A DNA stretch of 64,000 nucleotides from Malacoraja senta. Its lineage: Eukaryota. The notes under the pieces were generated by a model. It searched no databases. It was not told the origin of the DNA and saw only the letters and a program-made list of their open reading frames with translations. Both the position numbers and the translations under genes were made by a program. The stretch spans positions 362,638,001 through 362,702,000 of the forward strand of contig CM075977.1 of assembly GCA_038087875.1 (NCBI GenBank), given 5' to 3'. This document shows, piece after piece, positions 12,131-64,000 of this stretch; the stretch's first letter is position 1; each line of letters opens with the position of its first letter.

Positions 12131-12854
12131 TGTTAATATTGGCTAAATCCCTGCACTTGTCAGAATTGCTTAACCTTTGTCAGCTGAACTTTACCAGCTT
12201 TGATTGGCACCAGCCAGTCTAGGCTTGGTATGCAGGATGGTGAGGGGTCCAGGTGTTCTCCCCGTTTCTCTTAAATTGATAACATGTATAGCAGTTTTGC
12301 AAACGAGCCTTAAATGCATCATTTCGATTGGATCGCTGCAATAGCATTGTAAATAGTATAAATAATGTTGCAAGACAGCCATCCTGTTAATTGATGATTG
12401 GTCAAACATTTGAGCCTTGGAGAAACTGTTTGACTCTCAGGGCACGTTTCGATGTTTGTTCTTCTTTGCTTCCTTCTAGTGCTTTCTTTCTTATACAATG
12501 TATTAGCCACTGTATTATTGGGTTAGGGAAATGTCTGTAATTGGATTGTGAAGAGACCACCCCCATGTGGTTTGGCCCCTCGAGGTCTCTGGACCTACAA
12601 AAGTCTGCTGCCACGAGGTCCTGCGTCGATCTTCTGAGAGAGCGCTTGGGACTGCGTGACCTTCTGGAGTGTCTCTGAGCGAGACCTAGAGGGCTTGATC
12701 AGGCAGATACGAGGATCGAACCCTAGGTGGTTAGGTACAGTATTTGGAACTGTAATTGTGTTTTGTTAAAATAATGTTTAGATGTGTACGTGCTTGACTC
12801 AGTGATTTTTGACTGAGAGTAGACGGGGGGGAAACTTAGAACGAGCAATTTACA
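12131..12854 (+). promoter_or_regulatory. 5' LTR of ERV-B
   Basis: TGTTAATA...AATTTACA; homologous to 25686-26315; TATA box mutated to TACAAAA (12596). Confidence 0.95.
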
Positions 12855-12855
12855 T

Positions 12856-12873
12856 TGGGGGCTCGTCCGGGAT
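12856..12873 (+). promoter_or_regulatory. Primer-binding site, tRNA-Pro
   Basis: TGGGGGCTCGTCCGGGAT, the 18-nt tRNA-Pro PBS as in MLV, one nt after the LTR end. Confidence 0.97.
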
Positions 12874-14712
12874 CTCAACAGACCGTCAAACACAAGTTTG
12901 CGATCACAGGGGTTGAGCTGTTTCGATTGCGAGTGCAGAAATCGGAACCAATGTGCGGTTTTCGCATTGGTTTTCGGCACCGTTAGTCAGAGCGGATCGA
13001 TCATTCGCGGCCTTGGGAAAGGGTCTAATTGAGATCATTAGATCTGAGTCTAGCAAGCACGGGAGGGTGGTTAGCACTCCTTTGAGTTTGGAACCCATAA
13101 AACAGGGCATAGAGTGGCCCAAAATTTGGTCATAGTTGGCAGACTGCAGCAGCTTTAAAAAGAGCCTGACGCGCTTCATTTGGCGAGGGGTGGCCCAAGG
13201 TTAGATTTGGTATCCAATTGGAGGGGTATTGAAACACCTGTCTGACCTACGTATTTATCTTTCTTTGCCGTGAGCGCAGATTGGAAAATTGCGCTCTGAA
13301 AATCAACATCGAGAACTGCCAGAGCGAAGAGGCAAGGCGCTGAACCCTCAGTGCCCAGCAGAGAGGGGTGTCTCCGTGAAGATACCTGAGCCCCCCACTG
13401 AAGTGACAGACGAGGAATCTCATAAAGGTACTGGGCTCGGTGATCAGGGTATAGATTGGCTGGGAATACTCTAGTCCATTCGAGAATTTAATTGGGCAAT
13501 TTTAGTTTAATTAGCGAGCCCGCATATGTGGAGTGGTACGCACCAAAACTGGGAGTTCGAGAACGAGTCTAGATTTGCCGAATTAAATGTCCAAATACAG
13601 AATTTCACATTGAAGTTCTGCCCGTAAGGTAGAATTCGAATTCTTGTAGATAGAACTTCAGAGTTGGTGCATGTCCGTGATCGATTCCGAATAGCGGGTG
13701 AGCAACAGTGAATAGTACCCCTCTGATCGATTGTTGATTAGTACCTGATAGCGAAGAGTACCTGAGAGACGGGAACCGGTTTACTTGGTGAAAAATAATC
13801 CGAATGCGAAGGGTACCCCTAATTCTGTAGAACTTATAGAGGAGTGATAGAGGTCCCCCTATAGAAGTCCAGTCTTAGCGTGAGGATAGTAACATTCCGG
13901 AGGAAAAGTAGTCATTTAAGGAGTAGTACCCCTCAGCAAAGAGTAACCAAGGAAGGGGAAAATCTTCGGTATCGGAGGGAGAGGTTCACTGATTGATAAC
14001 AGTGTGACGCGGCATTGAGATCGAGTGTTTGTATACTGTGTGCTTGTGCTTTAAATCATTTTTGTAAATTGTAAAAATCTAGCTTTTTGTATTGTTATCG
14101 GATCCGAATTATGTAAATATTCTGTGTATGTAAATAAATTTAGAGTGTATTAAGATTTAGAAGTTAAGATTTGGAGTGTGTTAAGTTGGCGGACTGCTAT
14201 TTGTGTTGCTGCTTGTGTGAGTGTTTACGGATTTAGATACTTGAAGTAAAAGTGTGCTTGAGTTAAATATTTGTAATTGCTTACATTGTAGTATTGTGAG
14301 AATCTGAGTCATGGTATTTCGATCAGGGATTGTACTCTTTCGATCGCTGTGTTGAGGGAGGAGTCGTACCGCTGACCGATCGTGCCATGAGGAGGATTTA
14401 TTAGAGTGTGATTTACAGTCGTATTAAGTGGATCTTTGAGATTTATGCAGGAGTGTGGTTAGGTATACTTCTAATAAGTGGAATAATTTATTTTCTGTGT
14501 TCAATTTTGCTCACGTGTTTGGAGTTCATTTGCATGTGTTAGATTAAGGTGGGGGATAGGAAACGGGCTGCGAGAACATGTGTGATTGTGATTGGTTGTT
14601 TCATTGAGCATTTTGATTTGAATATTGTTTAAAACGACTGGTAATTTTGAAATTAGAAAGGGAAAAATTAAGAGGTGTGAGTAGCTTTAGAGTTGCTTCC
14701 ATATCCAATAGA

Positions 14713-16651
14713 ATGGGGAACCACGCAAATAAAGATATGACCGCTGACTCGGAAAGTCCTTTACAAGAAATATGCAGTGAATTTCCCCAAAAAGCTGATC
14801 GATTGAGAATTCTTTCCGGATCATTAAATAGAGAATTGGGGAGGGAATTATGGCCCCAAGTGGGCATAGATACAGTAAAGGGTTTGAAATACAGTGAGCA
14901 GATTATATGGCAATGCAGCGATAATACAGAGGAACTAATTGAATTGTGGAGAAATTATTATGAGGAACAGAAAGCGAGTAGAGCGGAGGAAAGAATGGCA
15001 AGATGGAGGAAGCAACTCTAAAGCGGGGGATAAAATTAGAAGATACAGAAGCATTTGAACCTCCAGGTAGCCTAAGAGGAGAGCCTGAGAGTATTAAAGA
15101 TAATGGGAGAAGGATATCTTTCACAGAAAGACTATCATCCATAAGTTTCAAGCGCAAGGATCCGATGGTTGGCACTGGTTACGAGGGGGATGACGATGAT
15201 TATTTGGAAGACTGGGAGTGCGTTAAAACTAGAATTTCACGTCCACCACCTTATTCATCTTACGATACCAATACCTTAGATGCACATCGAAAAGCTCGTA
15301 ATGGGAATAGACAATCAAATTCTAGGGCACAAACTTCCTTAACCCCGACCGCTCCGCCCATTACAGACCGTCCACGGTACCAGAAATCAGACTAGAAAAA
15401 TAACTAAATTAGTTAAGGAGAAAGAAGAGCATACCCCTAGACAAACTGAACGAGCAGTTAAGGAAGGAAAGAAATCATTTAGAAAGTACCGTGAACCCCT
15501 TGGTGAATGGGAAGATACATCTGGGGGTGAGATAACAATTGAAGAAGCTGACGTAGATCCTGAAGCTAAACAGACAACTCTTAGATCGTTCCCTGTAAGG
15601 GAAATGCCTAATCCTTCTTTTGATCCAACTAATGCAGTGAGTGCAAATAATCCCCGTACAATTAGAGTCTATTCCCCATGGAAGCCTAATGAGATGATGG
15701 CTATTTTAAGTCAAATACCCAATCGTAGAAAATCACCCGCTTCTTTTGTGGATCACTTAAGAACTACAATGCACATTTATCACACCAATTCCCAGGATTT
15801 ATTGGGCGGTGATCCAACAAATAATTACCCCAACTGAGCATAGCAGATTCCTAAAAAATTTAGGACATCCGTCGCATGAAGCTCTTGCAAATATAATAGC
15901 GGACAATGGTGCAAGGGAGGAAGCTGTTTTAACAGCCCTTGCCAACACGCTTCATAAACCAATCTAATATTAGATGTAAGACCATAAAGGGGAGAAGGAG
16001 CGGATGAGTTTTTAGAGCGATTCTCTGAATTATATATGGACCAATCGGGTGACTTAAATTACAGAAATGGAGTAAATTCCCCTCAATATTGTGCCATCTT
16101 ACTGAATTGCCTCCCCACCAACGTAGCAGAAGCCATTAAGACTAATAACATGGACTGGACAGAAAATAGTGCCAGTCAAATGGCTAGGGCTATAAGATAT
16201 CATTGGAAGGACATAAAGAAGCAGGATAGCCTGCCTGCAGTAAAACCAAAATGAATAAGTGATCAGAAAAGAAGTATTGAAATTCGACTCTGAATCATGG
16301 ATCCCTAGAGTACCAGCAAACTATAGACTGGGAGAAGTTAGAGTCCAGGAATATCCAGACTGATATTATAGAGAAGCATCTGCCCTAGAGCCAGCCCTCC
16401 AAAGACCAGGGTTGAGGACAGGCCTGCCATCAGGAGTAAGCCAGTTATAGTTGTGGAGGTGTAGGTCACTGGAGTAGGGGGTGCCCAAATAAACAAAAGG
16501 AACAACAGAGGGGGTCACAGAAAAAATCTCCAAGATCAAAGAGAATGAAGGGATCAACGTGATCCTAGAGAGCACAGAGGGAACTGGCAGGAAAATCAGG
16601 AGCCAAGGGGACAAATCTCATTTTCTCAGAGTAACCCATTCACAACCTTGA
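14713..16651 (+). pseudogene. gag: ERV-B gag (multiple frameshifts and stops)
   Basis: MG start; PPPY at 15243-15254; PTAPP at 15345-15359; CA-like VYSPWKPNEMMAILSQIP; one Cys-His box (S)YSCGGVGHWSRGC at 16443-16484. Confidence 0.9.
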
Positions 16652-19600
16652 TTAGCGAACCTGGTAGTGACTGGATGCAAGTCTGATGAGGAACCTATGT
16701 TGTCTCTACAGGTTGAAGGTAAAATCTGCACCTTCCTAGTGGACACAGGTGCATCCATGTCATCTCTTCAATCAATTTATAATTTACCAGACACAAGAGA
16801 AGTTCAAAACAAGTTTGCTAGTATCCCATCTCTGAGCCAGTCGAAGTAGTATATGGAGGAAAGGCAAACAAACGTAGATTTGTGATAACCAGTGGATTAG
16901 ATTGCAACCTGATGGCGAGAGATTTACTCTGTGCTTTCCAACTAAAAATACAGTGTGGCGATAAAGGTATAGTAGTTATCCCATGGGCCCCTACATGACA
17001 ATGTTACTCCATAGTGACCACTCAATGGTTGTCCTTAAATCTGGACGAAGAACCCGCACTTGACATTACACTGGCTTACGATAGGAGTGGAAAGGACAGT
17101 GAGCTGGAAACCTTCTTTAAATCATACGAAGGACATGAATGGGGAAATAGAAGTATTGGCACTAGTGGAAGGAAAAGAGGGAGCTGCCGAGTATGCTAAA
17201 ATACCAACACAGTTTATGGATAAGAACTGATGAAGTTGCTCTTCACATCACCCGAAAGGTGAATTTCCCGGCTAGAGCTAAAGACCTAGGAAGGATGGTA
17301 AGAAAGGCAATTACTTTGGCAGACCCAAATAATGACCAAAAGCAGAATTAGTCTAATCAATATGTTGTTGAATTTTACCAGGCCCCATTGAAAGTTGTTA
17401 CTCACTTACGTCATCATCTGGGGAGTGAGGTATACGAGTATGTGGACCCTCAAGTATGGGCGCAGGACACAGCTCAAGTAGGATGCGTGAACATCAATCC
17501 CATCCGTGTAGCTCTCCAGAAAAGGGAAACACTTCCTTCAATCCAACATTATCCATTGAAACTATAGGCCATCAGTAGCATTGACAAATTAATTTGATGT
17601 TTGCTAGAATAAGGAATATTGGTGAAGTGCCAATCAATCTGTAACACCCCTATTCTTGCCGTTCCAAAACCAGGAAAGGTGGGCCAATATAGACTTGTAC
17701 AATACTTAAGGGAAATCAATTCTGTTGTAGGACCACTTCATGTCCTAGTGCCAAACCCTGCCCATATCCTAGCCCAAATACGGGCTGAAGCCAAAGTCTT
17801 TTCGACATACGACTTGCAACATGCATTCTTTTCTCTTCCCCTTCATGAAGACAGCCAATATTTGTTTGCCTTCAATTATAGGTTGCCTCAAGGATTTGTC
17901 AATTTGCCTACTTTATTTTCCAGGTGTCTGCAGGATCAGCTAAGTATTTTATAGTTTAAAATGAATTCAACATTAGTGCAGTATGTTGATGACCTATAAG
18001 TGGCCAGCAAAGATGAATCCAGTAATCGGAAAGACACTGCACAACTACTAAATCATTTAGCTGATCTAGGATATGTAGTCTCACCATCAAAAGTACAGGT
18101 AGCTCAGGAGAAAATAAAATTTCTAGGAATTATAATTTTGGCCACCGAAGAATTGAGAAGAGCAGACTCGAACCTATCTGCGAATTTCAAATCCCAAAAG
18201 AAGCCAACATGATGCAATGTCTGTGCATGCTTAATTATTGCAGACCCTGGATTCCAAATATAGCTTTAGAAACCAAGGAGCTAACACCTTATACCAACAA
18301 GGATGGCAAATTTAAATTAACAAAGGCGGCACAGCAGGCATTTAAGAACTTAAAAAGTATGTTGATGCAAGCTCCGGCATTGGGAAGGCCATTACACGAT
18401 TGTCCTTTCCAGCTCTATTGTACAAATTTATCTGATTGTGGCACTTCGGTACTATCGCAAAAGCATGGGGATAGACATAGACCAGTTGCATATTACTCTT
18501 CCAAATTGGATCCAGTAGCTAGGGGACATCCCCTTTGCACTCAAATCTTAACTGCAATCTACAATAGTTTACAATCAGCTGCTAATTTGACACTCCAGCA
18601 GGAAATTGTAGTGTACAGTTCACATTCGGTATCGGCATTGTTGGGGCAGCTTCAAACCCAGCACTTGATAATGGCCCGCCAAAATAAGTATGAGATCTAT
18701 TTGTTGAACAATTCAAAATTACAGTTCAAACATTGTACATTGATTAACCCATCCTCTTTACGTATTTCATCCCCAGAAGAGCAATCAGAAGCAGGACATG
18801 ACTTTCTATTTGTTATAGAGGAAGAAACATGTGAGGGAGGTTTTGAGGGATGTACCCATGGAAGACTCTGACATCACATTATATGTGGATGGTAGTGCAT
18901 CCAATGGGTGAGAGTTTGTCTGGGTATGCAATTATTAATCAAAAGACGGAGATTGTAGAAACAGCTGCTTTTGAATCACCCTATTAAGCACAACAAGCTG
19001 AATTATTCGCTTTAATTCAGGCTTGTAGTATTGGGGAAGATCTAAAAGTAAATATTTACACTGATTCTCGATATGCATTTGGGGTGATGCATGATTTTGA
19101 ACAATTATTGGAAAATAGGGGATTCCTAACCTCTGCAGGAACCCAAAGATCACACAAACAAATTTATTGAAGGCCTTAATGATACCCAGACAAATCTCTA
19201 TAATAAAATGTACTGCCCATACTAAAGGACAGAGCCCAGTAGACATTGGAAATCGTAATGCCGATTTAGTAGCTAAGAAAGTATCATGGGAATGTAAGGT
19301 GGTGGTGCCTAGAATGATGAAGCAGACTAAAAGTATAACTAACAATTCTCTCTTGGAAAAACTGATGCCAACCATCCAAGAAATTGTTTGATTTCAAGAA
19401 GAGGCTACTGAAGTAGATAAGGAGAGATGGAGACAACTGGGATGTGTACTGGATTGCGTGACTGGGCTGTGGGCTACTCCAGCAGGGCAAACTTGCATGA
19501 CAGACTCATTGGCCGTATGGCTTATCGAGTGTATGCATTATGCAACCCATTGTGGTGCAAGGGCAGTATGGGACACTCTATTAGCTACTTGGTGGCATGC

Positions 19601-20512
19601 AAAATTACAATCCTTTGTTCAAAAGGTAAGCAATAATTGTCTAGTCTGCCAGTAATACAATCCAGGGAAAGGAATAGAATGTGAAGGAGGGAAAACACCG
19701 TTACCTATGGGTCCTTTTGAGACATTGCAAATGGACTATATTGAATTAGAAAGATGCCAAGGATATAAATACGTTCTTGTCATAGTCGATGTATTCAGCC
19801 GGTGGATCGAAACATACCCAACCCTTGACAATATAGTGACTACTGTTGTCAAGGTGCTAATGAGATTAATATGTCCCTAGATTCGGCATTCCCATTTGAC
19901 TTAGCTCAGATAACAGTCCACACTTTATTGGACAAATCAATAAAGAATTTTGTGAACAGCTGGGGATTCAGCAGCAATTACACTGTGCTTATCGACCACA
20001 GGCTGCTGGACTTGTAGAAAGGGCAAACCAGACCCTTAAAACTAAATTAGCCAAATTAAAGGCGGGGACTGGACTTGGATGGATTAAATTACTCCCAACA
20101 GCCCTATTTCAGATGAGAGTCACGCAGGAAAATCTAGATTAAGCCCAGCTGAAATTATTTATGGTAGACCCTTAAAAAACCCTCGGAACCAGAATGCAAT
20201 GAAACTAGTTAATTTCCACCATATGACTGCAGAGATGACCGACTATATCTTAGCATTAACAAGAGCTTTAAGGCATTTACATTGTAGAGTGAGAGCAGCC
20301 TATCAGGATATGCCTCATTATTAATTCCCATTAAAGTAAAACCTGGAGACTATGTCTGAGTGAAGAATTGAGTAAGGAAAGGTTCAGAAGTCCGTTGGGA
20401 AGGACCATACCAAGTTCTTTTAATAACTCCGACAGCAGTAAAAGTAGAGGGAAGAAATGCCTAGGTGCATCTCTATCTTTGTAAAAGCATTAGTGAAGGT
20501 ATCAGTAGTTAA
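16652..20512 (+). pseudogene. pol: ERV-B pro-pol: protease, 2H-like insert, RT, RNase H, integrase (disrupted)
   Basis: FLVDTGA; NTPILAVPKP, DLQHAFFS, LPQGF, QYVDD (about 17980); YVDGS; HYATH..CLVC; QMDYIEL, SSDNS, GLVERAN; WEGPYQVLL. Confidence 0.95.
17014..17340 (+). other. 2H phosphoesterase (CNPase/LigT-like) domain remnant between PR and RT
   Basis: L(D)ITLAY at 17059-17079, EGKEGAAEY, then LHITRKV..AKDLGRMVRKA at 17241-17310; reconstruction needs two frameshifts. Confidence 0.7.
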
Positions 20513-20552
20513 CTTGTTTTCTCCCAGGTTTTCTTAAGAATTCTCCACTCTA

Positions 20553-23500
20553 CCAGAAGAATTTACTTGTTTATTAGATTATAATATTAAAACCAATTGT
20601 AAGAACTTATCCTATTAACAACTTAATAAGTTATGCATGTTAGATTAGAATACTAACAAAAACAAAAATAAAAAATAACGAACTAACATACTAATATGAA
20701 TTTTTAATAAATTGAAACCTTATCTATAAGTGGGAGGAGGGGATGAGAAACGAGCACCTGGCTTAGGCCCAGGGGCACGTCCCGTTAACCCCTTCAACCA
20801 ACAGTTGATTCTTATTGAAGTCAAAAGTATCGGTTTAATAAATAGTAGTTAAAATTGCGATATATATATGATATGTTATAATGAAATATATAGGGTAAAA
20901 TTGTATTTATATATCTGAATGTGAGGCCACGTTTTAATATTTTAATATGTTATGATTAACCAAGAGAGCGGAGCTATTTGTTTAACAACACAATGGAAGT
21001 CAAAACAAGGTTTTTTCCCACCTACAGGTGGGACACTCGCTACAGTGCCGACTATATCAGACACTGTATTTTCACTTTTTTCGTTTTTTTTTTATTACCA
21101 CATAAAATCACATGTTTGTGTTTTGTGTTTAGTGATGAGCGTAAAATGGATATACCAACAAAACTTAAAAATTCAAAAGTTCCCCCAATACCCAAAGACC
21201 TGGGATATGGATGCACCACAAGATTTAAAGGTACTATAATTATACAAAATGCATGACACCAAACAAAAGAACCTAGGAGGAATCTCATTTTGTAGTTGGA
21301 ATATAAGAGGTATTAACAAACCTATTAAAAGGGGTAAGATTCTAACTCAGCTGAAACTGTACAACTCCGACATTATCTTCTTACAAGAAACACACTTAAA
21401 ATCTCAGGATCAAGTTAGGTTGAGGGCGAAACGGATAGGTCAAACATACCATTCTTCATTCACTTCGAAATCTAGAGGCACATCAATCATTATAAGAAAA
21501 GGTATACCATTTAAAGCAAAGAATATCATAACAGATATAGAAGGGAGATACTTAATAGTTAATGGAGAAATCCATGATACTCCACTTACCTTGGTAAATA
21601 TATATGCCCCTAACTTTGACAACCCCCACTTTTTCAATAAAATTTTCAACATAATTGCAGAGTTTAACTATCAAAATGTTATAATAGGAGGAGACTTTAA
21701 CTGTGTTTTAGATCCGTACTTAGATAAATCAAGCCAAAAACAGAGGGGGAATATGAAATCGAAAACCGGGGAACTTCTCAATAAACAATACTAATATAGC
21801 AGATGTTTGGAGAATTGTTAATCCAACTGGCAGGGAATACTCGTTTTATTCAATGGTACATAAGACACTCACGTATAGACTACTTCCTGCTGGATACAAA
21901 ATTAATCCCTCAAACATCAAACCCAACATACCACACAAATTCGATTTCAGACCATTCTCCACTAACTTTCTTTTTAAAACTGGAAGGAATGTTTAAGAAT
22001 AAATCGTTTTGGAGATTTAATTCTCAAATTCTAAAAGATCCACAAGCGAGTATATATTTAAAAGAACAAATGGTGGCCTTTTTTCAAATAAATGATACTC
22101 CAGATATATCGTCTACTGTATTATGGGAATCTTTTAAAGCATACATTAGGGGTATTATAATTTCATATCAAGCTTTTCAAAATAAAAAGAATAAGAATGA
22201 ACAAAGACAGTTAGAAGAACTTATTAGACAAATGGATATAGATAATGCTAAAGATCCATCAATAGATAAACATAATAAAATAATAATTTTGAAATTTAAA
22301 TTAAATAAATTATTAGCTGCCAAACTTATAAGACTTTTTCAAATTAGAAAACAAGAGCACTTTGAATTTGGGGATAAACCGCATAAACTTTTGGCCCGCC
22401 AGCTAAAAAAACGAGAAAAGGAACATACTATACCAAAGATTAAATCAGATAAAGGGGAATTATTAACAACACCGAAGGATATTAATAAAAGATTTGCGCA
22501 ATTTTATGAGAATTTGTATACATCTAAAACGACAATTGATTCCAATAATATCACAACGTTTTGGATAATTGTAATCTTCCAAAGTTAGAGCTGAAGGAAC
22601 AAGAGGAATTGGGTGCACAAATTTCAATTAAGGAATTAGAAGATACAATAAACTCATTAAAGAATGGAAAAACACCAGGCCCTGATGGATTTACTAATGA
22701 ATTTTATAAAATCTTTTATGATAAAATAATACCAAGATTACAAAAAATGTACCAATATGCTTTTAAAAAACAAATACTTCCTGATACATTAGCGGAATCA
22801 ACGATTACACTAATACCTAAGAAAGACAAAGATATAGAAGAACCGGGTTCATATAGAGCTATAGCATTGTTAAACACAGATCAAAAAATATTAGCGAAAA
22901 CATTAGCTAGAAGATTAATAAATACATTAGTAAATTAATTAACCCAGATCAGACGGGGTTTATCCCTAAGCTATACTCATCCAATAATATGAGACATTTA
23001 CTCAACATAATGCACTCACACAAATCTGAAGATCAAGAATTATCAATTATTTCGCTGGAAAAAGCATTTGATCAAGTAGAATGGAATTATATGGATAAAG
23101 TATTACAAAAATTCCAACTGGGAGAGAATTTTATTCTATGGATCAAGTTACTATATAATAAACCTACAGCTAGAATACTAACTAATAACATATTATCCTC
23201 GAAATTCCATCTATCAAGGGGAAATAGACAAGAATGCTCATTATCACCACAGCTGTTTGCTCTCATTATTGAACCGCTAGCAGAAAATATTAGAATACAC
23301 CCTGATATCCATGGATATAATACTAAAGACTCATATAATAAAATATCTTTATACACGGATGATATATTACTGTACATTACAAAACCTCAAATCACTATAC
23401 CAATTATATTAAATTTAATTGAAGACTTTGGATCTTTTTCTGGATATAGAATAAATTGGAATAAAAGTGAAATTATGTCAATAAAACCGAAAGATTCAAC

Positions 23501-25417
23501 ACATCTTTTAAAATTCCCTTTTAAAATAGCTACAGAAAAATTTAAATACTTGGGAATCGAAATTACTAGAACATATCAAGGTATGTTTAAGGCAAATTTT
23601 GAACCCCTACTTAATAAATTAAACACACTAATTAAATTCTGGAAAACGCTCCCGATGTCTTTAATATGCCGAATAAATGCAATAAAAATGATCTTTCTAC
23701 CACAAATTTTATACCTATTTCAATCGATTCCTATATACTTACCAAAGAAGTTTTAAAAAAAACTCGACTCAGATATCACTAATTTTATATGGGACTATAA
23801 ATCACATAGAATACAAAAAACTCATCTGAATAAACCTAAAGTATTAGGGGGTTTAGCACTACCTAATTTTATGTATTATTATTGGTCAGTAAATATTAAA
23901 AATATGATTCAACTGATGGATAACTCCGCACAGCAAGTGGACTGGATTGTAATGGAGAAAGAGGATTGCTCCTCTGGAAACATTGGAGCGATCCTCCTCT
24001 CTCCAATGAAACTGAATAATATAAATTATAATAAGAACCCAATTATTCATCGTACAATCCGAATTTGGAAACAAATAAAACAAAATTTAAAATTAAGAAA
24101 TTTATCACTTTTATTACCTATAGTTAATAACCCTTCGTTTAGTCCTTCTATTATAGATAAAGCTTATACACAATGGGATAGACTAGGAATTAAAACGCTC
24201 GGTGACTTGTATGAAACTGGAAAATTGCTTTCATTTCAACAATTACAAATAAAATATAAACTCGGAAATAATCAATATTTTAAATATTTTCAAATATGCG
24301 ACTATTTGAAAAAATATACAAAATATCATTATAATAACCCAGCAGATGTATTGGATGAGGCAATGCAGATAAAAGCTGAATCAGCAAACCTAATATCATA
24401 TTTGTATAATATTATCTTAAATGTACAAATACCATCTACGGAGGGTATCAGAAGAGACTGGGAACAAGAGTTAGCTATTAAAATTTCAAAGGAAAGTTGG
24501 AATGAACATTTATTAAAAGTGCATAAATGTTCGATTAATGTAAGACACACTTTAATACAATTTAAAATTTTACATAGATTATATTATTCGAAAACTAAAA
24601 TTCATAAAATTTTCCCAAATGTATCATCTATTTGTGATAAATGTCAATCCCAAGAAGCTACTATAGCGCACTCATTCGTTTTCTGTACAAAAATTCAAAA
24701 ATTTTGGAATGAAATTTTCGAAATCTTTACAAAATTATTTAAAATAAGACTGATACCCAAAGCAGAATGGATTATCTTCGGAATAACGGAAGATGGTGCA
24801 GAACTAAATGTGTTTCAAAAGAAACTAACAGACTATGGGTTAATAACTGGAAAAAAGCTAATTCTAAAATTTTGGAAGAAGGCTCCAATACCAACTATAA
24901 ACATGTGGATTTCAAATATGTTCGAAACATTACACCTAGAAGAGATAAGACTCCTCCTAGCAGGTAAACCAGATCACTTCCACCTGACGTGGTCTGCATT
25001 TATAGAATTATTACAAATATAGGGTGCAAAGGTACCTTAAAAAAAAATTGAGGTCAGGTAAGGGGGGATGATAGTTGAAGAGTTGGTATGTCCCATTTGC
25101 GTAATACTCATAAAAATATTTGTTTCTCTCTTTTTCCTCTTTCTCTTTCTCTTTCTTTTCTAGGGTCTATTTCTTAACTCTTTTTCTTTTGTTTTTAATT
25201 TTGTTCTTATAGGGTCTTCGTCCTTTTTTGTTGTCACATTTTCTACACTCTCACTTTTTCCTTCACTTTCTTCTTTCTTTCAATCTTTTCCTTTTCTAGT
25301 GTAAAAAACAAATGGAGTACATTTATTGTAAGAAGACATAAGTGACGAGTACTAATGTATGTGGTTTTAATGTAATGTACTTCTAATAAATAGAAAATTA
25401 AAAAATATATTAAAAAA
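20553..25417 (+). mobile_element. L1 LINE, 5'-truncated upstream of ORF2, inserted in ERV-B
   Basis: 17-bp TSD AAGAATTCTCCACTCTA at 20536-20552 and 25418-25434; TT/AAGA nick site; AATAAA and A-rich tail. Confidence 0.96.
21249..25022 (+). pseudogene. L1 ORF2 (APE endonuclease, RT, CCHC), frameshifted
   Basis: SWNIRG, LQETH, NIYAPN, GGDFN, SRIDY, SDHSP; PGPDGF, EKAFD, ISLYTDD, KYLG; CDKC..H..C. Confidence 0.95.
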
Positions 25418-25685
25418 AAGAATTCTCCACTCTATTATGAATCAAGGAACAATGGACTATCAGGATTGATGGATGGGAATTCGAGCCCACAAAAACTCGG
25501 AAGGCGAAGACTTATCAGAAAGAAATCATGGAGCTACGCCCACGAAAACTCGGGAAGCTCAATGAAATTCTGAGAAGCTACATCAACATCTTCTTGTTAG
25601 AACATTGTTAAAGTAGAGCAGTCATCATTGTATTCTGGAGTTATCAGTTATGATGAGGGTTATCATGAATGATAAAATGGGGGAA

Positions 25686-26315
25686 TGTTAATACTTGCCA
25701 AATTAAAGACACCATAAAATGGAGGATCTTTGCACTTGTCAGAATTGCAAACAAACCTTAAATGCATCATTTTGATTGGTTTGCTGCAAAAGCATTGTAA
25801 GTAGTATAAATAATGTTGCAAGACGGTCATCCTGTTAGTCGGTGATTGGTTGAACTGTTGAGCCTTGGAGAAACTGTTTGAATCTCAGGGAACATGTTTC
25901 AATGTTTGTTCTTGTTTGCTTCCTTCTAGAGCTTTCTTTCTTATACAATGTATTATTGGGTTAGGGAAATGTCTGTCATGTATGGGGTTAATCGATATCT
26001 GTAATTGGATTGTAAAGATACCACCCCCACGTGGTTCAGCTCCTCGAGGTCTGGAGACCTATAAAAGTCCGCTGCCATGAGGGCGATCTTCTGGGAGAGC
26101 GCTTGGGACTGCGTGACCTTCTGGAGTGTATCTGTTTGAGTGAGGCGTAGAGGGCTTGATCAGGCAGATACGAGGATCAAACCCATGGTGTTTAGGTACA
26201 GTAGTTGGAACTGTAATTGTGCTTTGTCAAAATAATGTTTAGATGTGCAAGTGCTTGCCTCAGTGATTTTTGACTGAAACTAGACTGGAGGGAAGCTTTG
26301 AACGAGCAATTTACA
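25686..26315 (+). promoter_or_regulatory. 3' LTR of ERV-B
   Basis: Follows the PPT; TGTTAATA...AATTTACA; TATAAAA at 26060. Confidence 0.95.
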
Positions 26316-49959: not shown

Positions 49960-52900
49960 TAGAGGCGATCACGATCGGCCTGAACACCGCCTTTACGTCC
50001 GTGACCGCCACTCCGGCCGCCGTTTTCTTGTGGACTTCGGTGCAATTGTCAGCATCCTCCCTCCTACCGGGCACTACACTTGTGCTGGTAAGCGTGGCCC
50101 CATGCTCACAGCCATCAACGGGAGCACCATCCGAACGTACGGTACGCGGACCCTTTCACTTACCTTCGACTCCCGCCCGTACGACATCGTGGCAGACATC
50201 GCTCAGCCGCTCCTGGCGGCTGATTTCTTGCGTGCCTTCTCCCTCGTCGTGGATGTTCAGGGCGGCTGCATGACTCCGCGATCGGCCATCGGCTCCACCG
50301 CGCCGCTGCCCCCGCCCCCACCCAACTCACAGCTCAGCGTCGTCGCCGAGGTCAACGGTCTTTACGCCGCCCTGCTCTTGGATTTTCCTGAGCTCCTCGC
50401 ACCCCGTTTCAGCAGGGGGTTGTGCACCATATCCCCACTGAGGGTCCTCCGGTGCATGCCCGGGCGCGTCGCCTCCTGCCGGACAAGCTGTGCATCGCCC
50501 GGGATGAGTTTCAACTAATGGAGGACATGAGGATTGTTCGGTGGTCCGACAGCCGATGAGCCTCCCTGCTACATATGGTCCCGAAAGCTTCGGGGGGGGG
50601 GGTGGAGACCATGCGGGGATTACCAGCGTCTGAACACAATGACCACGGTGGACCGCCACCCGGTGCCCCATATTCAGGACTTCTCCGCACACCTCGAGGG
50701 CACCGCTTTCTTTTCCAAGGTTGACCTCGTCCGAGATTACAACCAAATCCCCTTGCAGGACGACGACTTTCCAAAAACCGCCATGATCACCCCGTTCAGC
50801 CTGTCTGAGTGGCTCTGAATGCCTTTCGGGTTATAGAAAGCCGCGCAGGCATTCCAGCGGCTGATGGGCCAGGTCGGGCGGGGTCTACCTTTCATGTTTA
50901 TGTATTTGGACGACATTCTGGTCACCAGCACCTCGCAAGAGGGGCACATCACCCACCTCCAGACTTTGTTCCAGTGCCTCCGTGAACACGGCCTCGTCAT
51001 TAACCCTGTGAAGTGCCAGTTCGGCCTCCGCTCCATCTCCTTCCTGAGGCACAACGTTACTCCCCAGGGTGCTACCCCACTCCCCGCTAAGGTCGAAGCC
51101 ATCCGGCAGTTCCCCCGGCCGCTCACCATGAAGGGGCTACAGGAGTTTGTTGGCATGGTGAACTTTTATCACCATTTCGTGCCGGCAGCTGCTAACATCA
51201 TGCGCCTCCTGTTCCGGTGTCTGGCAGGTAAGCAGCGGGCCTCGCGTGGTCCGCGGAGGCGGACATGGCTTTCGAGGGTGCCAAGGCAGCCCTGGCCAAA
51301 GCTACCATGTTGGTACACCCACGTGCTTCCGCCCCTACTGCGCTCACCGTAGACGCCTCGGATGCTGCTGTGGGTGGTGTTCTGGAGCAGCTCGTCGACG
51401 GCCGCTAGCAGCCGTTAGCCTTTTTCAGTCGCCAGCTGCGTGCGCCAGAATGCAACCACAGCGCTTTCGACCGCGAGCTTCTAGCGCTGTATCTCGCCGT
51501 CAGATATTTCAGATATTTCCTCGAGGGCCAGGCATTCAATGCTTTCATGCACCACAAGCCCCTCATTTTCACCCTGGGCAAGATCGCTGATCCGTGGTCC
51601 GCCCGTTAGCAACGGCACCTTGCATATATCTCAGAATTTACAACTGACATCTGCCATGTCATGGGTAAACTCAACGTCGTTGCCGTCGCCTTGTCCGGAC
51701 CCGCCATTACCTCCATTTCGGCCCTCGACCATGCGTCGGCTATAGCCAGCTGGCTGCAGCGCAGCGTGCAGACGCGGGTATGGAAGCCTACCGCACAGCT
51801 GTTTCTGGCCTTCGGCTGGCCGAAGTGCATTTCGGAGCGGCAGGCAACATGGTCTTATGCGACGTCCCCAGGGGTCGTGCCCATCCCATCGTCCCTGTCA
51901 GATGGCGACGACGGGTTTTTGATGCTGTCCATGGCCTGGCTCACCCGTCCATACGGGCAACGTCCGCACTGGTGGCGGCCAAGTTCATCTGGCATGGGCT
52001 GCATAAGCAGGTGGCTGCCTGGGCCCGCGCATGTGTCCCATGCCAGTGGCACGTGCGTCCCCCGGTGCAGGAGTTTGCGCTTCCTGCGGGCAGATTCCTG
52101 CACGTACATGTCGACCTGGTGGGCCCGTAGCCGCAGTCCCGCGGCGCTACGCACCTGCTCACCATAGTGGACCATTTCACGCGGTGGCCAGAGGCGATCC
52201 CACTTACTGATACGTCCGCCCTGGCTTCCGCTCGGGCTATGGCGGCCCACTGGATTGCCCGGGTCGGGGTGCCTTCTTTTTTAAATTTTTTAAACAAATT
52301 TTATTTATTAGAAGTACATTACATTACAACCACATACATTAGTACTCGTCACATATATCTTTTTACAATTAATGTACTCCCTTTGTTTTTTACACTAATA
52401 AAGGGAAAGGATGAGATTGAGAGAAAGAAGAAAATGAAGGAAAAGGTGAAAGTGTAAAAAACGTGACAACAAGAAAGAACGAAGACCCTATAAGAACGAA
52501 ATTAAAAACAAAAGAAAAAGAGTTAAGAAATAGACCCTAAAAAAGAAGAAGAAAGAGAAAGAGGGAAAATAGAAAAACAAATAGTTTTGTAAGCATCACG
52601 CAAATGGGACATACCAACTCTCCAACTTTCATCCCCCCTTACCTGACCTCAGGTTTTTTTAAGGTACTTTTGCACCCTATATTTGTAATAATTCTATAAA
52701 TGCAGACCACGTCAGGTGGAAGTGATCTGGTTTACCTGCCAGGAGGAGTCTTATCTCTTCTAGGTGTAATGTTTCGAACATATTTGAAATCCACATGTTT
52801 ATAGTTGGTATTGGAGCCTTTTTCCAAAATTTTAGGATTAGTTTTTTCCAGTTATTAACCCATAGTCTATTAGTTTCTTTTGGAACACATTTAGTTCTGG

Positions 52901-54660
52901 ACTATCTTCCGTTATTCCAAAGATAATCCATTCTGCTTTGGGTATCAGTTTTATTTTAAATAATTTTGTAAAGATTTCAAAAATTTCAATCCAAAATGTT
53001 TGAATTTTTGCACAGAATACAAATGAGTGCGCTATAGTAGCTTCTTGCGATTGCCATTTATCACAGATGGATGATACATTTGGGAAAATTTTATGGATTT
53101 TCGTTTTGGAATAATATAATCTATGTAAAATTTTTAATTGTATTAAAGTGTGTCTTACATTAATTGAACATTTATGCACGTTTAATAAGTGTTCATTCCA
53201 CCTTTCCTTTGAAATTTTAATAGCTAGTTCTTGTTCCCAGTCTCTTCTGATACCCTCCGTAGATGGTATTTCTACATTTAAGATAATATTATACAAATAT
53301 GATATTAAGTTTGCTGATTCAGCTTTTATCTGCATTGCATCATCCAATACATCTGCTGGGCTATTATAATGATCTTGTGTATATGTTTTCAAATAGTCGC
53401 ATATTTGAAAATATTTAAAATATTGATTATTTCCGAGTTTAGATTTTATTTGTAATTGTTGAAATGATAGTAATTTTCCAGTTTCATACAGGTCACCGAA
53501 TGTTTTAATTCCTAGTCTATCCCAGTGTGTGAAAGATTTATCTATAATAGAGGGATTAAACGAAGGATTATTAACTATGGGAGATAAAAGTGATAAATTT
53601 CTTAATTTTAAATTTTGTTTTATTTGTTTCCAAATTCTGACTGTGCTATGTATAATTGGGTTCTTATTATAATTTATGTTATTCAGTTTCATTGGTGAGA
53701 GGAGGATCACTCCAATGTTTCCAGAGGAGCAATCCTCTCTCTCCATTACAATCCAGTCCACTTGCTGGGCAGAGTTATCCATCAGTTGAATCATATTTTT
53801 AATATTTACTGACCAATAATAATACATGAAATTAGGTAGTGCTAAGCCCCCTAATACTTTAGGTTTGTTCAAGTGAGTTCTTTGTATTCTATGTGATTTA
53901 TAGTCCCATATAAAATTAGTGATATCTGAGTCCAATTAAAAAAAAAACTTCTTTGGTAGGTATATAGGAATCGATTGAAATAGGTATAAAATTTGTGGTA
54001 GAAAGATCAGGGTCGGGGTGCCTTCTGACATTTCCACTGACCCGGGGGCCCAGTTCACATCTTCCTTGTGGTCTGCCCTAGCCCTCGCTACGCCGCCCGG
54101 TTACACCTTACGACCGCCTACCACCCACAGGCCTAGTGGCTCGTCGAGCAGTTCCATCGGCACCTCAATTCGGCGCTGAAGGCTCGGCTCACAGGCCTGG
54201 ATTGGGCGGACCAACTGCCATGAGTCCTCCTTGGCATACGCACCGCCCCCATGGAAGATTTGGCTGCTTCCTCGGCCGAGCTCGTGTATGACTCGATTTT
54301 CTCCCTACCGCCTCTGGCCAGGCCGCATCAGCCCAGGTGTTGCTAGCTGGCCTTCGGGAGAGGGTGAGCACGTTGACCCCTGTTCCCACTTCTAGGCACA
54401 GTTCGTCCGCGGTGCATGTGCCCGTGGTGTTGCAAAAATGTGCTTATGTTTTAATTCGCAGGGACGCTCACCGCTCGCCATTGCAACGAGTATACGAGGG
54501 GCCATTCCGGGTGCTGTGAGCCGGGGTCTACACGTTAACTGTGGACGTGGGAGGCCGGGAGTAGTTTGTTTCCGTCGGCCGTCTCAAACACACCCCATGT
54601 GGATGTGGACAGCCCGGTGGTTGTTGCTTCGCCGCGACGTAGAGGTTGTCCACTGGCCGT
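49960..54660 (+). pseudogene. pol: Gypsy pol (PR-RT-RH-IN), disrupted and interrupted by an L1
   Basis: FLVD(F)GA, WRPCGDYQRLN, YLDDILV, VDASD..VGGVL, HGLAHP..CVPCQ, HVDLVGP, YEGPFRVL. Confidence 0.9.
52278..54009 (-). mobile_element. L1 3' fragment (ORF2 C-terminus and UTR) inserted in the Gypsy integrase
   Basis: 17-bp TSD GGGTCGGGGTGCCTTCT at 52261-52277 and 54010-54026; protein highly similar to ORF 23871-25022. Confidence 0.95.
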
Positions 54661-59348: not shown

Positions 59349-60606
59349 CAATAGACAATAGACAATAGGCAATAGACAATAGGTGCAGCAGTTGGCCATT
59401 CGGCCCTTCGAGCCAGCACCGCCATTCAATGTGATCATGACTGATCATCCCCAATCAGTACCCGGTTCCTGCCTTCTCCCCATATCCCCTGACTCCGCTA
59501 TCTTTAAGATATCCCTATCTAGCTCTCTCTTCAAAGTATCCAAAAAAACGGCCTCCATCGCAACCTGAGGAAGAGAATTCCACAGTCTCACAACTCTCTG
59601 TGAGAAAAATTGTTTCCTCGTCTCCGTTCAAAATGGCTTACCCCTTATTCTTAAACTGTGGCCTAAGGTTCTGGACTCCCCCATCAGCGAGAACATGTTT
59701 CCTGCCTCAAGCGTGTCCAAACCCTTTATAATCTTAAATGTTTCCATAAGATTCCCTCGCATCCTTCTAAACTCCAGAGTATACAAGCCCAGCTGCTCCA
59801 TTCTTTCAGCATATAACAGTCCCGCCATCCCGGGAATTAACCTTGTAAACCTATGCTGCACTCCCTCGATAGCCAGAATGTCCTTCCTCAAATTAGGGTA
59901 CCAAAACTGCACACAATACTCCAGGTGTGGTCTCACTAGGGCCCTATGCAACTGCAGAAGGACCTCTTTGCTCCTATACTCAACTCCTCTTGTTATATAG
60001 GTCAATATGCCATTCCCTTTCTTCACTGCCTGCTGTACCTGCATGCTTACTTTCATTGACTGATCAACAAGGACCCCCAGATCCCGTTGTACTTCCCCCT
60101 TTCCCAACTTGACACCATTTAGATAGTAATCTGCCTTCCTGTTTTTGCTACAAAAGTGGATAACCTCACATTTATCCACATTAAACCGCATCTGCCCACT
60201 CACCCAACCTGTCCAAGTCACCCTGCATTCTCATAGCATCCTCCTCACAGTGCACACTGCCACCCAGCTTTGTGTCATCTGCAAATTTGCTAATGTTACT
60301 TTGAATCTCTTCATCTAAATCATTGATGTATATTGTAAATAGCTGTAGTCCGAGCACTGAGTTTTGCGGTACCCCACTAGTCACTGCCTGCCATTCTGAA
60401 TGGGACACGTTAATCCCTACTCTTTGTTTCCTGTCTGCCAACCAATTTTCTATCCATGTCAGCACTCTACCCCCAATACCATGTGCCCTAATTTTGCCCA
60501 CTAATCTCCTATGTGGGACCTTATCAAATGCTTTCTGAAAGTCCAGGTACACTACATCCACTGGCTCTTCCTTATCCATTTCCCTAGATACATCCTCAAA
60601 AAATTC
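59349..60606 (-). mobile_element. HER1/CR1 LINE 3' part (RT to tail)
   Basis: DFQKAFD, GVPQ, KFADD; (CTATTGT)n tail. Confidence 0.92.
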
Positions 60607-63600
60607 ACATGGGAGTGGTTTCTTAATAATCCAATTACAGATATCGATTAACCCCATACATAATAGACATTTCCCTAACCCAATAATGCAGCAGCTCAAT
60701 ACATTGTATAAGAAAGAAAGCTCTCGAAGGAAGCAAACAATAACAAGATTGAAACATGTGCCCTGAGATTCAAACAATTTCTCCAAGGCTCAACAGTTCG
60801 ACCAATCATCAATTAACAGGATGACCGTCTTGCAACATTATGTATACTGTTTACAATGTTTTTGCAGCAATCCAATAGAAATTATGCATTTAAGGTTAGT
60901 TTGCAAAACCACTATACATGTTATCAATTTAAGAGAAACAAGGAGAACACCTGGTCCCCTTACTATCCTGCATATCAGTCTGAGCCTAGACAGGCTGGCG
61001 CCAATCAAAGCTTGTAAAGTTCGGCTGACAAGGGTTAAGCAATTCTGACAAGTACAGGGATCCTCCATTTTATGGTGTCTTTAATTTAGCCAATATTAAC
61101 ATTCCCCCATTTTATCATTCATGATAACCCTCATTATAAATGATAACTCCAAAATACAATTATGACTGCTCTACTTTAACAATGTTCTAACAAGGAGATG
61201 TTGATGTTGCTTCTCAGAATTTCATCGAACTTCCCGAGTTTTCGTGGGCGTAGCTCCATGATTTCCGTCTAATGAGTCTTCATCTCCTGAGTTTTCGTGG
61301 GTGCGAATTCCCATCCATCGATCTTGATAGTCCATTGGTCCTTGATTAGAATTCCTAAGAAAACCTGCGAGAAAACAAGTTAGATACTGATACCTTCACT
61401 AATACTTTTACAATGATGAAGATGCACCCAGGCATTTCTTCTTTCTACTTTTGCTGCGGTAGGAGTCATTAAAAGAACTTGGTGCGGTCCTTCGCAACGA
61501 ACTTCTGATCCTTTCTTTACCCAATTCTTCACTAAGACATAGTCTCCAGTTTTACTTTAATGGGAATTACTAGTGAAGGCATATCCTCATAGGCTGCTCT
61601 CACTCTACAATGTAAATCCCTTAAGGCCTTTGCCAAGGCTAAGATATAGTCAGTCATCTCTGCACTCATATGGTGGAAATTAACTATTTTCATTGCATTT
61701 TGGTTCCAAGGGGTTTTCATGGGTATACCGTAAATAATCAGAGTATCATCTGAAATAGGGCTATTGGGAGTAATTTGTCTATCCAAGTCCAGTCTCTGAC
61801 TTTAATTTAGCTAATTTAGTTTTAAAGGTCTGGTTTGCTCTTTCTACAAGTACGGCAGCCTGTGATCGACAAGCACAGTGTAATTGCTGCTGGATCCCCA
61901 ACTGTTCACAAAATTCTTTATTGATTTGTGCAATAAAGCATGGACTGTTATCTGAGCTACGTCGAATGGGAATGCCGAATCTAGGGACAATTTCTCTCAT
62001 TAGCACCTTGAAAACAGTAGCCGCCAAGTAGCTAACAGTGTGTCCCCTACCGCTCTTGCACCACAATGGGTTGCATAGTGCATACACTCGATAACCCATA
62101 CTGACAATGTGTCTGTCATGCAAGTTTGCCCTGCTGGAGTGGTCCATAGCCCAGTCATATAATCCAGTACACATCCCAGTTGTCTCCTTCTCTCCTTATC
62201 TCCTTCAGTAGCCTCTTCTTCGAATTGAACGATTTCTTGGTTGGTCGGCATCAGTTTCTTCAAGTGGGACTTGTTACTTACACTTTTAGTCTGCCTCATC
62301 ATTCTAGGTACCATCACCTTAAGTTCCCATGATGCTATTTTCGCTACTAAATCGGCATTACGATTTCCAATGCCTACTGGGGTCTGTCCTTTAGTATGGG
62401 CACTACATTTTATTACATAGATTTGTCTGGGTAGCATTAAGGCCTTCAATAAATTTGTCACCAATTATTTGTGTGATATGTGGGTTCCTGCAGAGGTTAG
62501 AAATACCCTATTTTTCCATAATTGTCCAAAATCATGCACCACCCCAAATGCATATTGAGAATCAGTGTAAATGTTTACTTTTAGATCTTCCCCAATAATA
62601 CAAGCCCTAATTAAAGTGAATAATTCAGCTTGTTATGCTGAATAGGATGATTCAAAAGCACCTGCTTCTACAATCTCTGTCTTTTAATTAATAATTTCAT
62701 ACCCAGACAACCTCCAATGGATGCACTACCGTCCACATATAATGTGATGTCAGGGTCTTCCATGGGTACATCCCTCAAGTCCTCTCTCACTGATGTTTCC
62801 TCCTCTTTAACTTATGGACAGTTGTGTCCTGCTTCTGCTCGCTCTTCTGGGGGTGAAATAAGAAAAGAGGCAGGGTTAATTAATGTACAGTGTTTAAACT
62901 GCAATTTCGGATTGTTCAACAGATAGATCTCATACTTATTTTGGTGGCCATTGTCGGGCTGGTTTTGAAGCTGCCCCAACGATGCCGATACCGAATGTGA
63001 ACTGTACACCACAATTTCCTGCTGTAGTGTCAAATTAGCAGCCGATTGTAAAATATTGTCGATTGCTGTTTAGATTGGAGTGGAAAGAGGATGTCCCCTA
63101 GCTACTGGATCTAATTTGGAGGAGTATTATGCAACTGGTCTATGTCTATCCCCATGATTTTCCGTTAATACCGAAGTGGCACAATGGCCTTCCCAATGCC
63201 GGGGCTCGCATCAAAGATCTTTACAAGTTCTCAAATGCTTCCTGTGCCTCCTTTGTTAGTTTAAATTCACCCCCCTTGCTGGTATAGGGTGCTAGCTCCT
63301 TTGTTTCTAGAGCTATATTTGGAATCCAAAGTCTGCAATAATTGACCATGCCCAGCCATTGTCTCATTTGTTTGGCTTCTTTTGGGACTAGAAATTCGCA
63401 GATAGGTTCGAGTCAGCTCTTCTCAAGACTTCTTTCGGTGTCTGAAATTATAATCCCTAGAAATTTTACTTTCTCCTGAGCTACCAGTACCTTTGATGTG
63501 GAGACCACATATCCTAGATCGGCTAGATGATTTAGTAATTTTTCAGTGTCTTCCTGATTACTGGATTCATCTTTACTAGCCACCAATAGGTCATCAACAT

Positions 63601-64000
63601 ACTGCACTAATGTTGAATTAATTTTAAACTTTAAAGTACTTAGCTGATCCTGCAGACACCTGGAAAATAAAGTGGGCGAGTTGACAAATCCTTGAGGCAA
63701 CGTGGTCCAGGTATATTGTTGGCCCTTATAGGTGAAGGCAAACAAATATTGGCTGTCTTCATGAAGAGGAAGAGAAAAGAATTCATGTTGTAAGTCGACT
63801 ATCGAAAAGACTTTGGCATCAGCCGGAATTTGGTCTGGGATATGGTCAGGATTTGGCACGAGGGCATGAAGGGGTTCTACAACAGAATTGATTTCCTTAA
63901 GAGTTGTACGAGTCTATATTGACCCTCCTTTCCTGGTTTTGGAATGGCAAGAATAGGGGTGTTACAGATAGATTGGCACTTCACCAATATTCCTTGTTCT
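60607..64000 (-). mobile_element. pol: ERV-C: second copy of the env-less ERV (pol 61380-64000; PPT 61102-61113; truncated 3' LTR 60607-61101)
   Basis: LPQGFVNSPTLF, QYVDDLL, HYATHCG, SSDNS, ERANQT; LTR homologous to ERV-B. Confidence 0.93.

Follow-up and report, generated by a model that had tools for sequence, protein, structure and literature searches.

Extra enzymes are rare in retroviral Pol, the textbook case being dUTPase. In the window (the whole 64,000-nucleotide stretch of Malacoraja senta DNA analyzed here), a decayed endogenous retrovirus (ERV) carries an extra segment between protease (PR) and reverse transcriptase (RT), which raises the question of what this segment encoded, what it did for the virus and whether its presence is connected with the lack of an envelope gene (env) in this element. 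A first-pass annotation of the window had read the segment as about 150 codons interrupted by two frameshifts, with paired H-x-T motifs characteristic of the 2H phosphoesterases. Comparison of the window frames with L018, a natural open copy of the same ERV family, recovered the extra segment, both frameshifts and the paired motifs; the PR-RT insertion itself was thus upheld, but its size had to be revised to approximately 135 codons, extending to about position 17411. The features referred to below are as follows.

12131..12854, + strand: 5′ LTR, 724 bp
12856..12873, + strand: primer-binding site, the sequence directly after the LTR end
14713..16651, + strand: decayed gag, terminating in a TGA common to the family
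16652..17004, + strand: protease, broken, with the catalytic Asp codon at 16742
17005..17411, + strand: predicted CNPase-clade 2H phosphoesterase domain, ~135 codons, disrupted in the window copy, which has two frameshifts, one stop codon and an Asp residue in motif 1
17062..17070, + strand: motif 1, Asp-Ile-Thr in the window copy
17244..17252, + strand: motif 2, His-Ile-Thr
17412..20510, + strand: RT, RNase H and integrase, decayed
20553..25417, + strand: LINE inside the ERV, with a 17-bp target duplication (20536–20552, 25418–25434)
25435..25685, + strand: integrase-to-LTR spacer with a polypurine tract and no env
25686..26315, + strand: 3′ LTR, 630 bp
60606..64000, − strand: another copy of this family (85% identity), whose 2H domain lies immediately outside the window edge

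The peptide quoted in the first-pass annotation is present in the window across three forward frames (17000–17410). Relative to L018, the domain is frameshifted near 17135 and again near 17212; stop codons interrupt the frame at 16996, just upstream of the domain, and at 17349, inside it. The Asp codon (GAC) at motif 1, which had been regarded as a single change from His, is found in the window copy, and His is present in the consensus and in all 30 of the other copies. This Asp is a private decay of the window copy, in which the domain is dead. To characterize the domain elsewhere, the genome was searched for family copies, which yielded 581 candidates, of which 40 were scored and 30 fetched. 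Motif 1 begins with His in all 29 of the fetched other copies (26 HIT, one HIA, one HIK and one HFT), for motif 2, the sequence HIT is shared by 29 of 30 copies with the window counted, and the two motifs are separated by 180 nt in 20 of 30 copies, i.e., by the 60 codons that had been estimated. In a larger set (53 loci, from which 10 duplicates were dropped), His is retained at motif 1 in 41/43 and at motif 2 in 39/43 copies. The copies diverge by approximately 8%. An uninterrupted domain is present in 8 of 31, and in L018 the end of the protease, the domain and RT form a single open frame of 534 codons. For the neighboring copy, the domain had been predicted to lie slightly beyond the right end of the window, and it was found there, with HIK and HIT motifs 180 nt apart. 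This copy also contains a 606-base insertion at the protease-domain boundary (L031:1591–2196), which is likely a repeat, because part of it recurs in L052 (94% identity over 220 bases).

The host element has the layout LTR-PBS-gag-pro-pol-PPT-LTR with a class I Pol. Its LTRs are 88% identical over 598 aligned bases (K2P 0.126), and its primer-binding site is presumably of the tRNA-Pro type, as in MLV. The leader (12855–14712) is long, at 1.86 kb, and contains short open frames, three of which showed no Pfam match. The position of the TGA that terminates gag is shared by 25 of the 27 copies aligned, from 30 examined, and the gag-TGA junction is likely a UGA read-through site. The gag terminator known from gamma- and epsilonretroviruses is TAG. 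All three 2H-bearing families of this genome have a gag that terminates in TGA (window 16649–16655). The protease of the natural copy L012 matches Pfam RVP with an E value of 7e-4, just under the cut-off, and the RT of L018, which is in frame with the domain, matches RVT_1 at 7e-27. The assignment of the element as a chondrichthyan ERV fits its nearest named homologues, which belong to skates, a catshark and a devil ray; its RT is 64% identical to a skate ERV Pol. The label “epsilon-like” is used here provisionally, on the basis of the homologues and of two papers (PMC4422223; PMC4977317).

When the LINE is removed, only ~300 bases separate integrase from the LTR. The same spacer follows the end of integrase in 29/29 other copies, and the LTR begins within 300 bp in 27 of these; the 29 copies were chosen by likeness to the integrase end, and at least 10 of them represent the same elements as loci found in the domain search. 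The ERV family is therefore env-less. A 72-codon open stretch present in the spacer of several copies gave no coding signal (ratios of 0.81, 0.75 and 0.92 in the three frames). A run resembling a splice acceptor follows integrase at window 20515–20552, and a spacer of 250 bases takes the place of env. The LINE itself is approximately 4.9 kb long, has endonuclease and RT matches and a 421-codon open stretch (23757–25022), and is 93% identical to window 52277–54009.

The domain is not confined to this family. A full HMMER scan gave 37 matches. Both motifs are covered by 32 of them, and in 28 of those 32 both are intact as H-x-T/S; one repeat protein (P0038) and four matches covering one motif only were left out of the motif counts. 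A second search returned 20 long proteins, including 14 with named teleost sources; both motifs are intact in every one (20/20), and the domain lies upstream of the RT active site in all 17 proteins of the 20 in which that site was found. Domain identity is 31–42% for the five homologues compared. Within the present genome, the domain also occurs, with its two motifs preserved, in two other families, where its identity is 41% and 33% (64% and 55% in RT); one of them has an env frame of 432 codons (Pfam TLV_coat), and the other has an env-like stretch in one copy (E 1e-10). The first-pass annotation had placed the domain in an env-less lineage. A special link to the env-less state is not supported, since two env-bearing families in the same genome carry the domain, which is therefore not tied to env loss. 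PR, domain and RT are in frame in the natural copies. These comparisons indicate that the domain is ancestral to the group and was inherited, not acquired, by the env-less family. The possibility that the insert is an unrelated piece of inserted DNA was ruled out by its occurrence at the same position and in frame in three families and in many fish ERVs. As for the families themselves, the second is younger (L093:1369–6553), with a 2H domain, an env frame and long open pol frames, of 1335 codons at 7 places among the matches listed; the third (L062–L068, L092, L094) shows 92–93% protein identity to P0009, which matches a skate ERV Pol; its open frames reach 1140 codons, and one copy retains an env-like remnant.

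Selection on the domain was assessed in 43 distinct copies (the 53 loci less 10 duplicates), with variants found in at least three copies defined as shared. Among 257 non-degenerate sites, 72 carry shared variants, compared with 34 of 53 fourfold sites, which gives a ratio of 0.44 (p 1e-6), or 0.49 (p 0.007) without CpG sites, these p values being generous since neither sites nor copies are independent. The corresponding ratios are 0.20 for RT and 0.30 for the protease half, and singletons in the domain are evenly distributed (0.61 against 0.62 per site). Pairwise K0/K4 is marginal for the domain, at 0.55 (CI 0.35–0.90), or 0.64 (CI 0.39–1.20) without CpG sites, compared with 0.36 for RT and 0.81–0.96 for the LTR control. 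Nei-Gojobori ratios (0.38 for the domain, 0.33 for RT, 0.45 for PR) were not used, since transition bias depresses such ratios even in the absence of selection. The domain was under purifying selection while the family spread, with a constraint looser than that on RT. The earlier claim that it was retained in an env-less lineage agrees with this result, and the shared variants could predate the loss of env.

The structure of the L018 domain was predicted from a 28-row alignment, giving a model with a pLDDT of 91.4 and a pTM of 0.81. In a Foldseek search of the PDB, CNPase and its fish homologue RICH account for 40 of the 41 matches listed (best E 1.7e-5, TMq 0.70), and the remaining one is an entry titled fungal RNA kinase; PDB 6u05, which we take to be the kinase-CPD part of a tRNA ligase, matches at 4e-4. 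When 48,161 chains were compared using VIA-align, CNPase scored Z 13.4 (140 residues aligned, rmsd 4.1) and was the only chain with Z of at least 8, followed at a distance by rotavirus VP3 (6.0–6.4), Acb1 (5.3), MHV ns2 (5.2), the penguinpox cGAMP phosphodiesterase (4.9) and AKAP18 (4.5); ranks 1–12 are all 2H-type phosphoesterases. The model thus makes it nearly certain that the predicted fold is a 2H fold, as the first-pass annotation had proposed, and that it is CNPase-like; this fold is modeled as closer to CNPase than to LigT, AKAP7, ns2 or Acb1. ESM features give best matches of 0.95, to clusters carrying tRNA_lig_CPD on 11% and 31% of their members, and point to phage and tRNA-ligase CPD proteins; the skate domain scores 0.81.

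At the sequence level, such relationships are faint. The domain has no match in Pfam, either in 5 natural frames or in 37 homologues, none in a PDB sequence search and none in an IMG/VR scan, and a word-based protein search with the single domain yielded 0 of 372 candidates; alphaRep matches in the PDB sequence search were dismissed as chance. A search of this genome with PF05881 found the host CNPase gene only (2 candidates). A profile comparison with the exon of host CNPase gave a weak score (probability 4%, E 0.01); in it, the second motif and the conserved Gly located 15 residues after His2 are aligned. Vertebrate CNPase and fish RICH (PDB 2xmi; PF05881) share with the viral domain the two H-x-T motifs and this Gly, but differ from it in length (216 vs ~135 aa), in identity (11–16%) and in motif spacing (79 in CNPase, H230/H309 according to PDB titles, vs 59–63 in viral domains, typically 60). 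In addition, CNPase has Val at +12 from His2 and Arg at −2; in the viral domains, Lys or Arg replaces this Val in 35/35 rows (one misaligned) and in 19/20 of the second set, and there is no Arg at −2. The fungal and phage tRNA-ligase CPD domain (PF08302) is nearest by language-model features, although the viral domain has no ligase or kinase partner and no sequence-level Pfam match. MHV ns2, rotavirus VP3, AKAP7, Acb1 and the poxvirus phosphodiesterase have membership of the 2H superfamily in common with it and, for the viral ones, a virus-encoded origin, but these 2-5A/cGAMP phosphodiesterases remain at Z 4.5–6.4, well below CNPase. The domain is accordingly best described as a predicted CNPase-clade enzyme outside PF05881 proper.

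The existence of such a domain is not new: 2H domains in fish retroviruses, including WDSV, are described in a published article (PMC9503650, citing Mazumder 2002), and CNPase-coding epsilon-like fish ERVs in another (PMC4977317, citing Basta et al. 2009). Epsilon-like shark ERVs have also been reported (PMC4422223), in a paper whose first part leaves the domain unmentioned. The word retrovirus is absent from the accessible portions of two works on viral 2H nucleases (bioRxiv 2025.08.21.671373; PMC13577500), and those of three further texts (bioRxiv 2021.11.23.469661; PMC3758190; PMC7599744) contain nothing on the domain. A literature search, beyond whose reach lay the founding papers (Mazumder 2002; Basta 2009), found no assay of a retroviral 2H domain; the Pol and Env positions discussed below may have been described there already. 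The 2H domain of fish retroviruses has thus been in print for more than 20 years, and its function is an old question. The results added here are the finding that the domain was under purifying selection in the copies of a family now without env, its predicted placement in the CNPase branch rather than the 2-5A branch, and the existence of small natural open versions, such as residues 126–262 of the annotated skate protein XP_055501356.1.

CNPase and the CPD domain of tRNA ligase convert a 2′,3′-cyclic phosphate into a 2′-phosphate and a 3′-OH. The predicted fold suggests that the viral domain probably has chemistry of this CNPase type. In the reading preferred here, to which a probability of roughly 0.5 is assigned as a whole, the domain would be synthesized as part of Gag-Pol, likely via read-through of the gag TGA, packaged in the particle with Pol at Pol’s low copy number, and active there as a 2′,3′-cyclic phosphodiesterase that opens cyclic phosphates on RNA. 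Its likeliest substrates would be RNA ends generated by host endonucleases, for example on the primer tRNA or packaged RNA, because extension by RT requires a 3′-OH. It would then represent an accessory enzyme of long standing in epsilon-like fish retroviruses, and would imply an unknown step in fish retrovirus replication or an unknown host defense. Several considerations count against this reading: 2H folds switch substrate readily, the active site differs from that of CNPase, selection is weaker than on RT (0.44 vs 0.20), and the gag-pol frame is divided between 276 nt (7 of 24 aligned copies) and 277 nt (also 7/24). To our knowledge, gammaretroviruses replicate without such a domain, which is therefore not a universal need.

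The healing of cyclic phosphates would fit the modeled CNPase-clade fold, and the degradation of 2-5A or cGAMP would fit it poorly, because the enzymes concerned score Z 4.9–6.0 vs 13.4 and teleost hosts are without OAS-RNase L. The domain might nevertheless have degraded such an innate-immune messenger in the entered or producing cell, as ns2, VP3 and Acb1 do. Coronavirus ns2, rotavirus VP3 and Acb1 are 2H proteins present in the fold list, an Acb1-labelled phage protein ranks 11th among the viral folds of BFVD (E 7e-3), the host OAS cluster is expanded (51 exon matches), a constraint weaker than that on RT is common in conflict proteins, and the OAS-RNase L pair works in a cartilaginous fish, the ghost shark, according to PMC10400998. 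The same paper reports the loss of OAS and RNase L in ray-finned fish; the ERVs of teleosts retain both motifs nonetheless, which argues against 2-5A as a general target and bears on 2-5A, not on cGAMP, the latter appearing disfavored by modeled fold distance only. Moreover, the Z values of these enzymes (4.5–6.4) fall far short of the 13.4 for CNPase, Pol at its low level would probably provide a poor dose against a cell-wide messenger, and the main text of a 2025 structure-guided survey of viral 2H proteins (bioRxiv 2025.08.21.671373), as far as available, is silent on retroviruses. Degradation of a messenger is considered unlikely on balance. The OAS-like genes form a tandem cluster of at least 8 (G000:C4:6.10–6.37 Mb), with a near-duplicate on another contig, and a shallow search of the genome for RNase L (4 candidates scored) gave a single match, which is IRE1.

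If the chemistry is that of CNPase, its target could still be a small molecule, such as 2′,3′-cAMP/cGMP released by RNA decay or ADP-ribose 1″,2″-cyclic phosphate, so that the domain would damp stress signaling rather than heal RNA ends. These are classic substrates for CNPase and the CPDases, which provide the top and several of the following fold matches, and macro domains also occur in fish ERVs (PMC4977317). However, a polynucleotide end would be better accommodated by the compact, open core and by the basic residue that replaces Val in the pocket, and the neighbors in feature space are proteins of the tRNA-ligase CPD type; a small-molecule role is rather improbable. Far less credible is a non-catalytic part, in which the domain would act as an RNA-binding or spacer domain of Pol or as a decoy for host CNP, an interferon-stimulated antiviral gene (PMC3832489): selection weaker than on RT would accord with it, but both H-x-T/S motifs are kept in skates and teleosts while the rest of the domain drifts to ~30% identity.

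The healing of RNA ends within the particle might extend to the walleye viruses, which share with this ERV the 2H/CNPase-like domain of fish epsilon-type retroviruses. In BFVD, a WEHV-1 protein ranks first (E 6e-7) and a WDSV protein fourth (E 4e-5); these matches (Q9WHI8 and A4GTG3, 1317 and 1159 aa) are only 15–18% identical to the domain and are labelled envelope polyprotein. In contrast to these Env-labelled matches, the domain of the present ERV is located in Pol, between PR and RT, in an env-less family of the cartilaginous-fish type. The revised topology of WDSV Env places membrane helices at 850–874 and 1045–1069, flanking a cytoplasmic loop of ~170 residues (PMC3185748). To judge from the label and the loop size, this loop could accommodate a domain of 135 residues inside the virion, and if this position is right, the domain reached the virion interior by two routes. 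It is conceivable, though doubtful, that fish retroviruses carry a particle-borne RNA end-repair enzyme at two addresses, the protease-RT junction of Pol in sharks, rays and most teleost ERVs and the inward loop of Env in walleye viruses, and that primer tRNAs or genomes cleaved by endonucleases of the host are rescued by this enzyme. Such an arrangement would be the first case of RNA healing in the retroviral cycle and would suggest that fish germ lines possess a defense that cuts RNA.

The window also contains a 64-base tandem array (661–1323), followed by the gag-like remnant of another element (1640–2400), which is 36–40% identical to the matrix region of the present ERV (E 1e-10).
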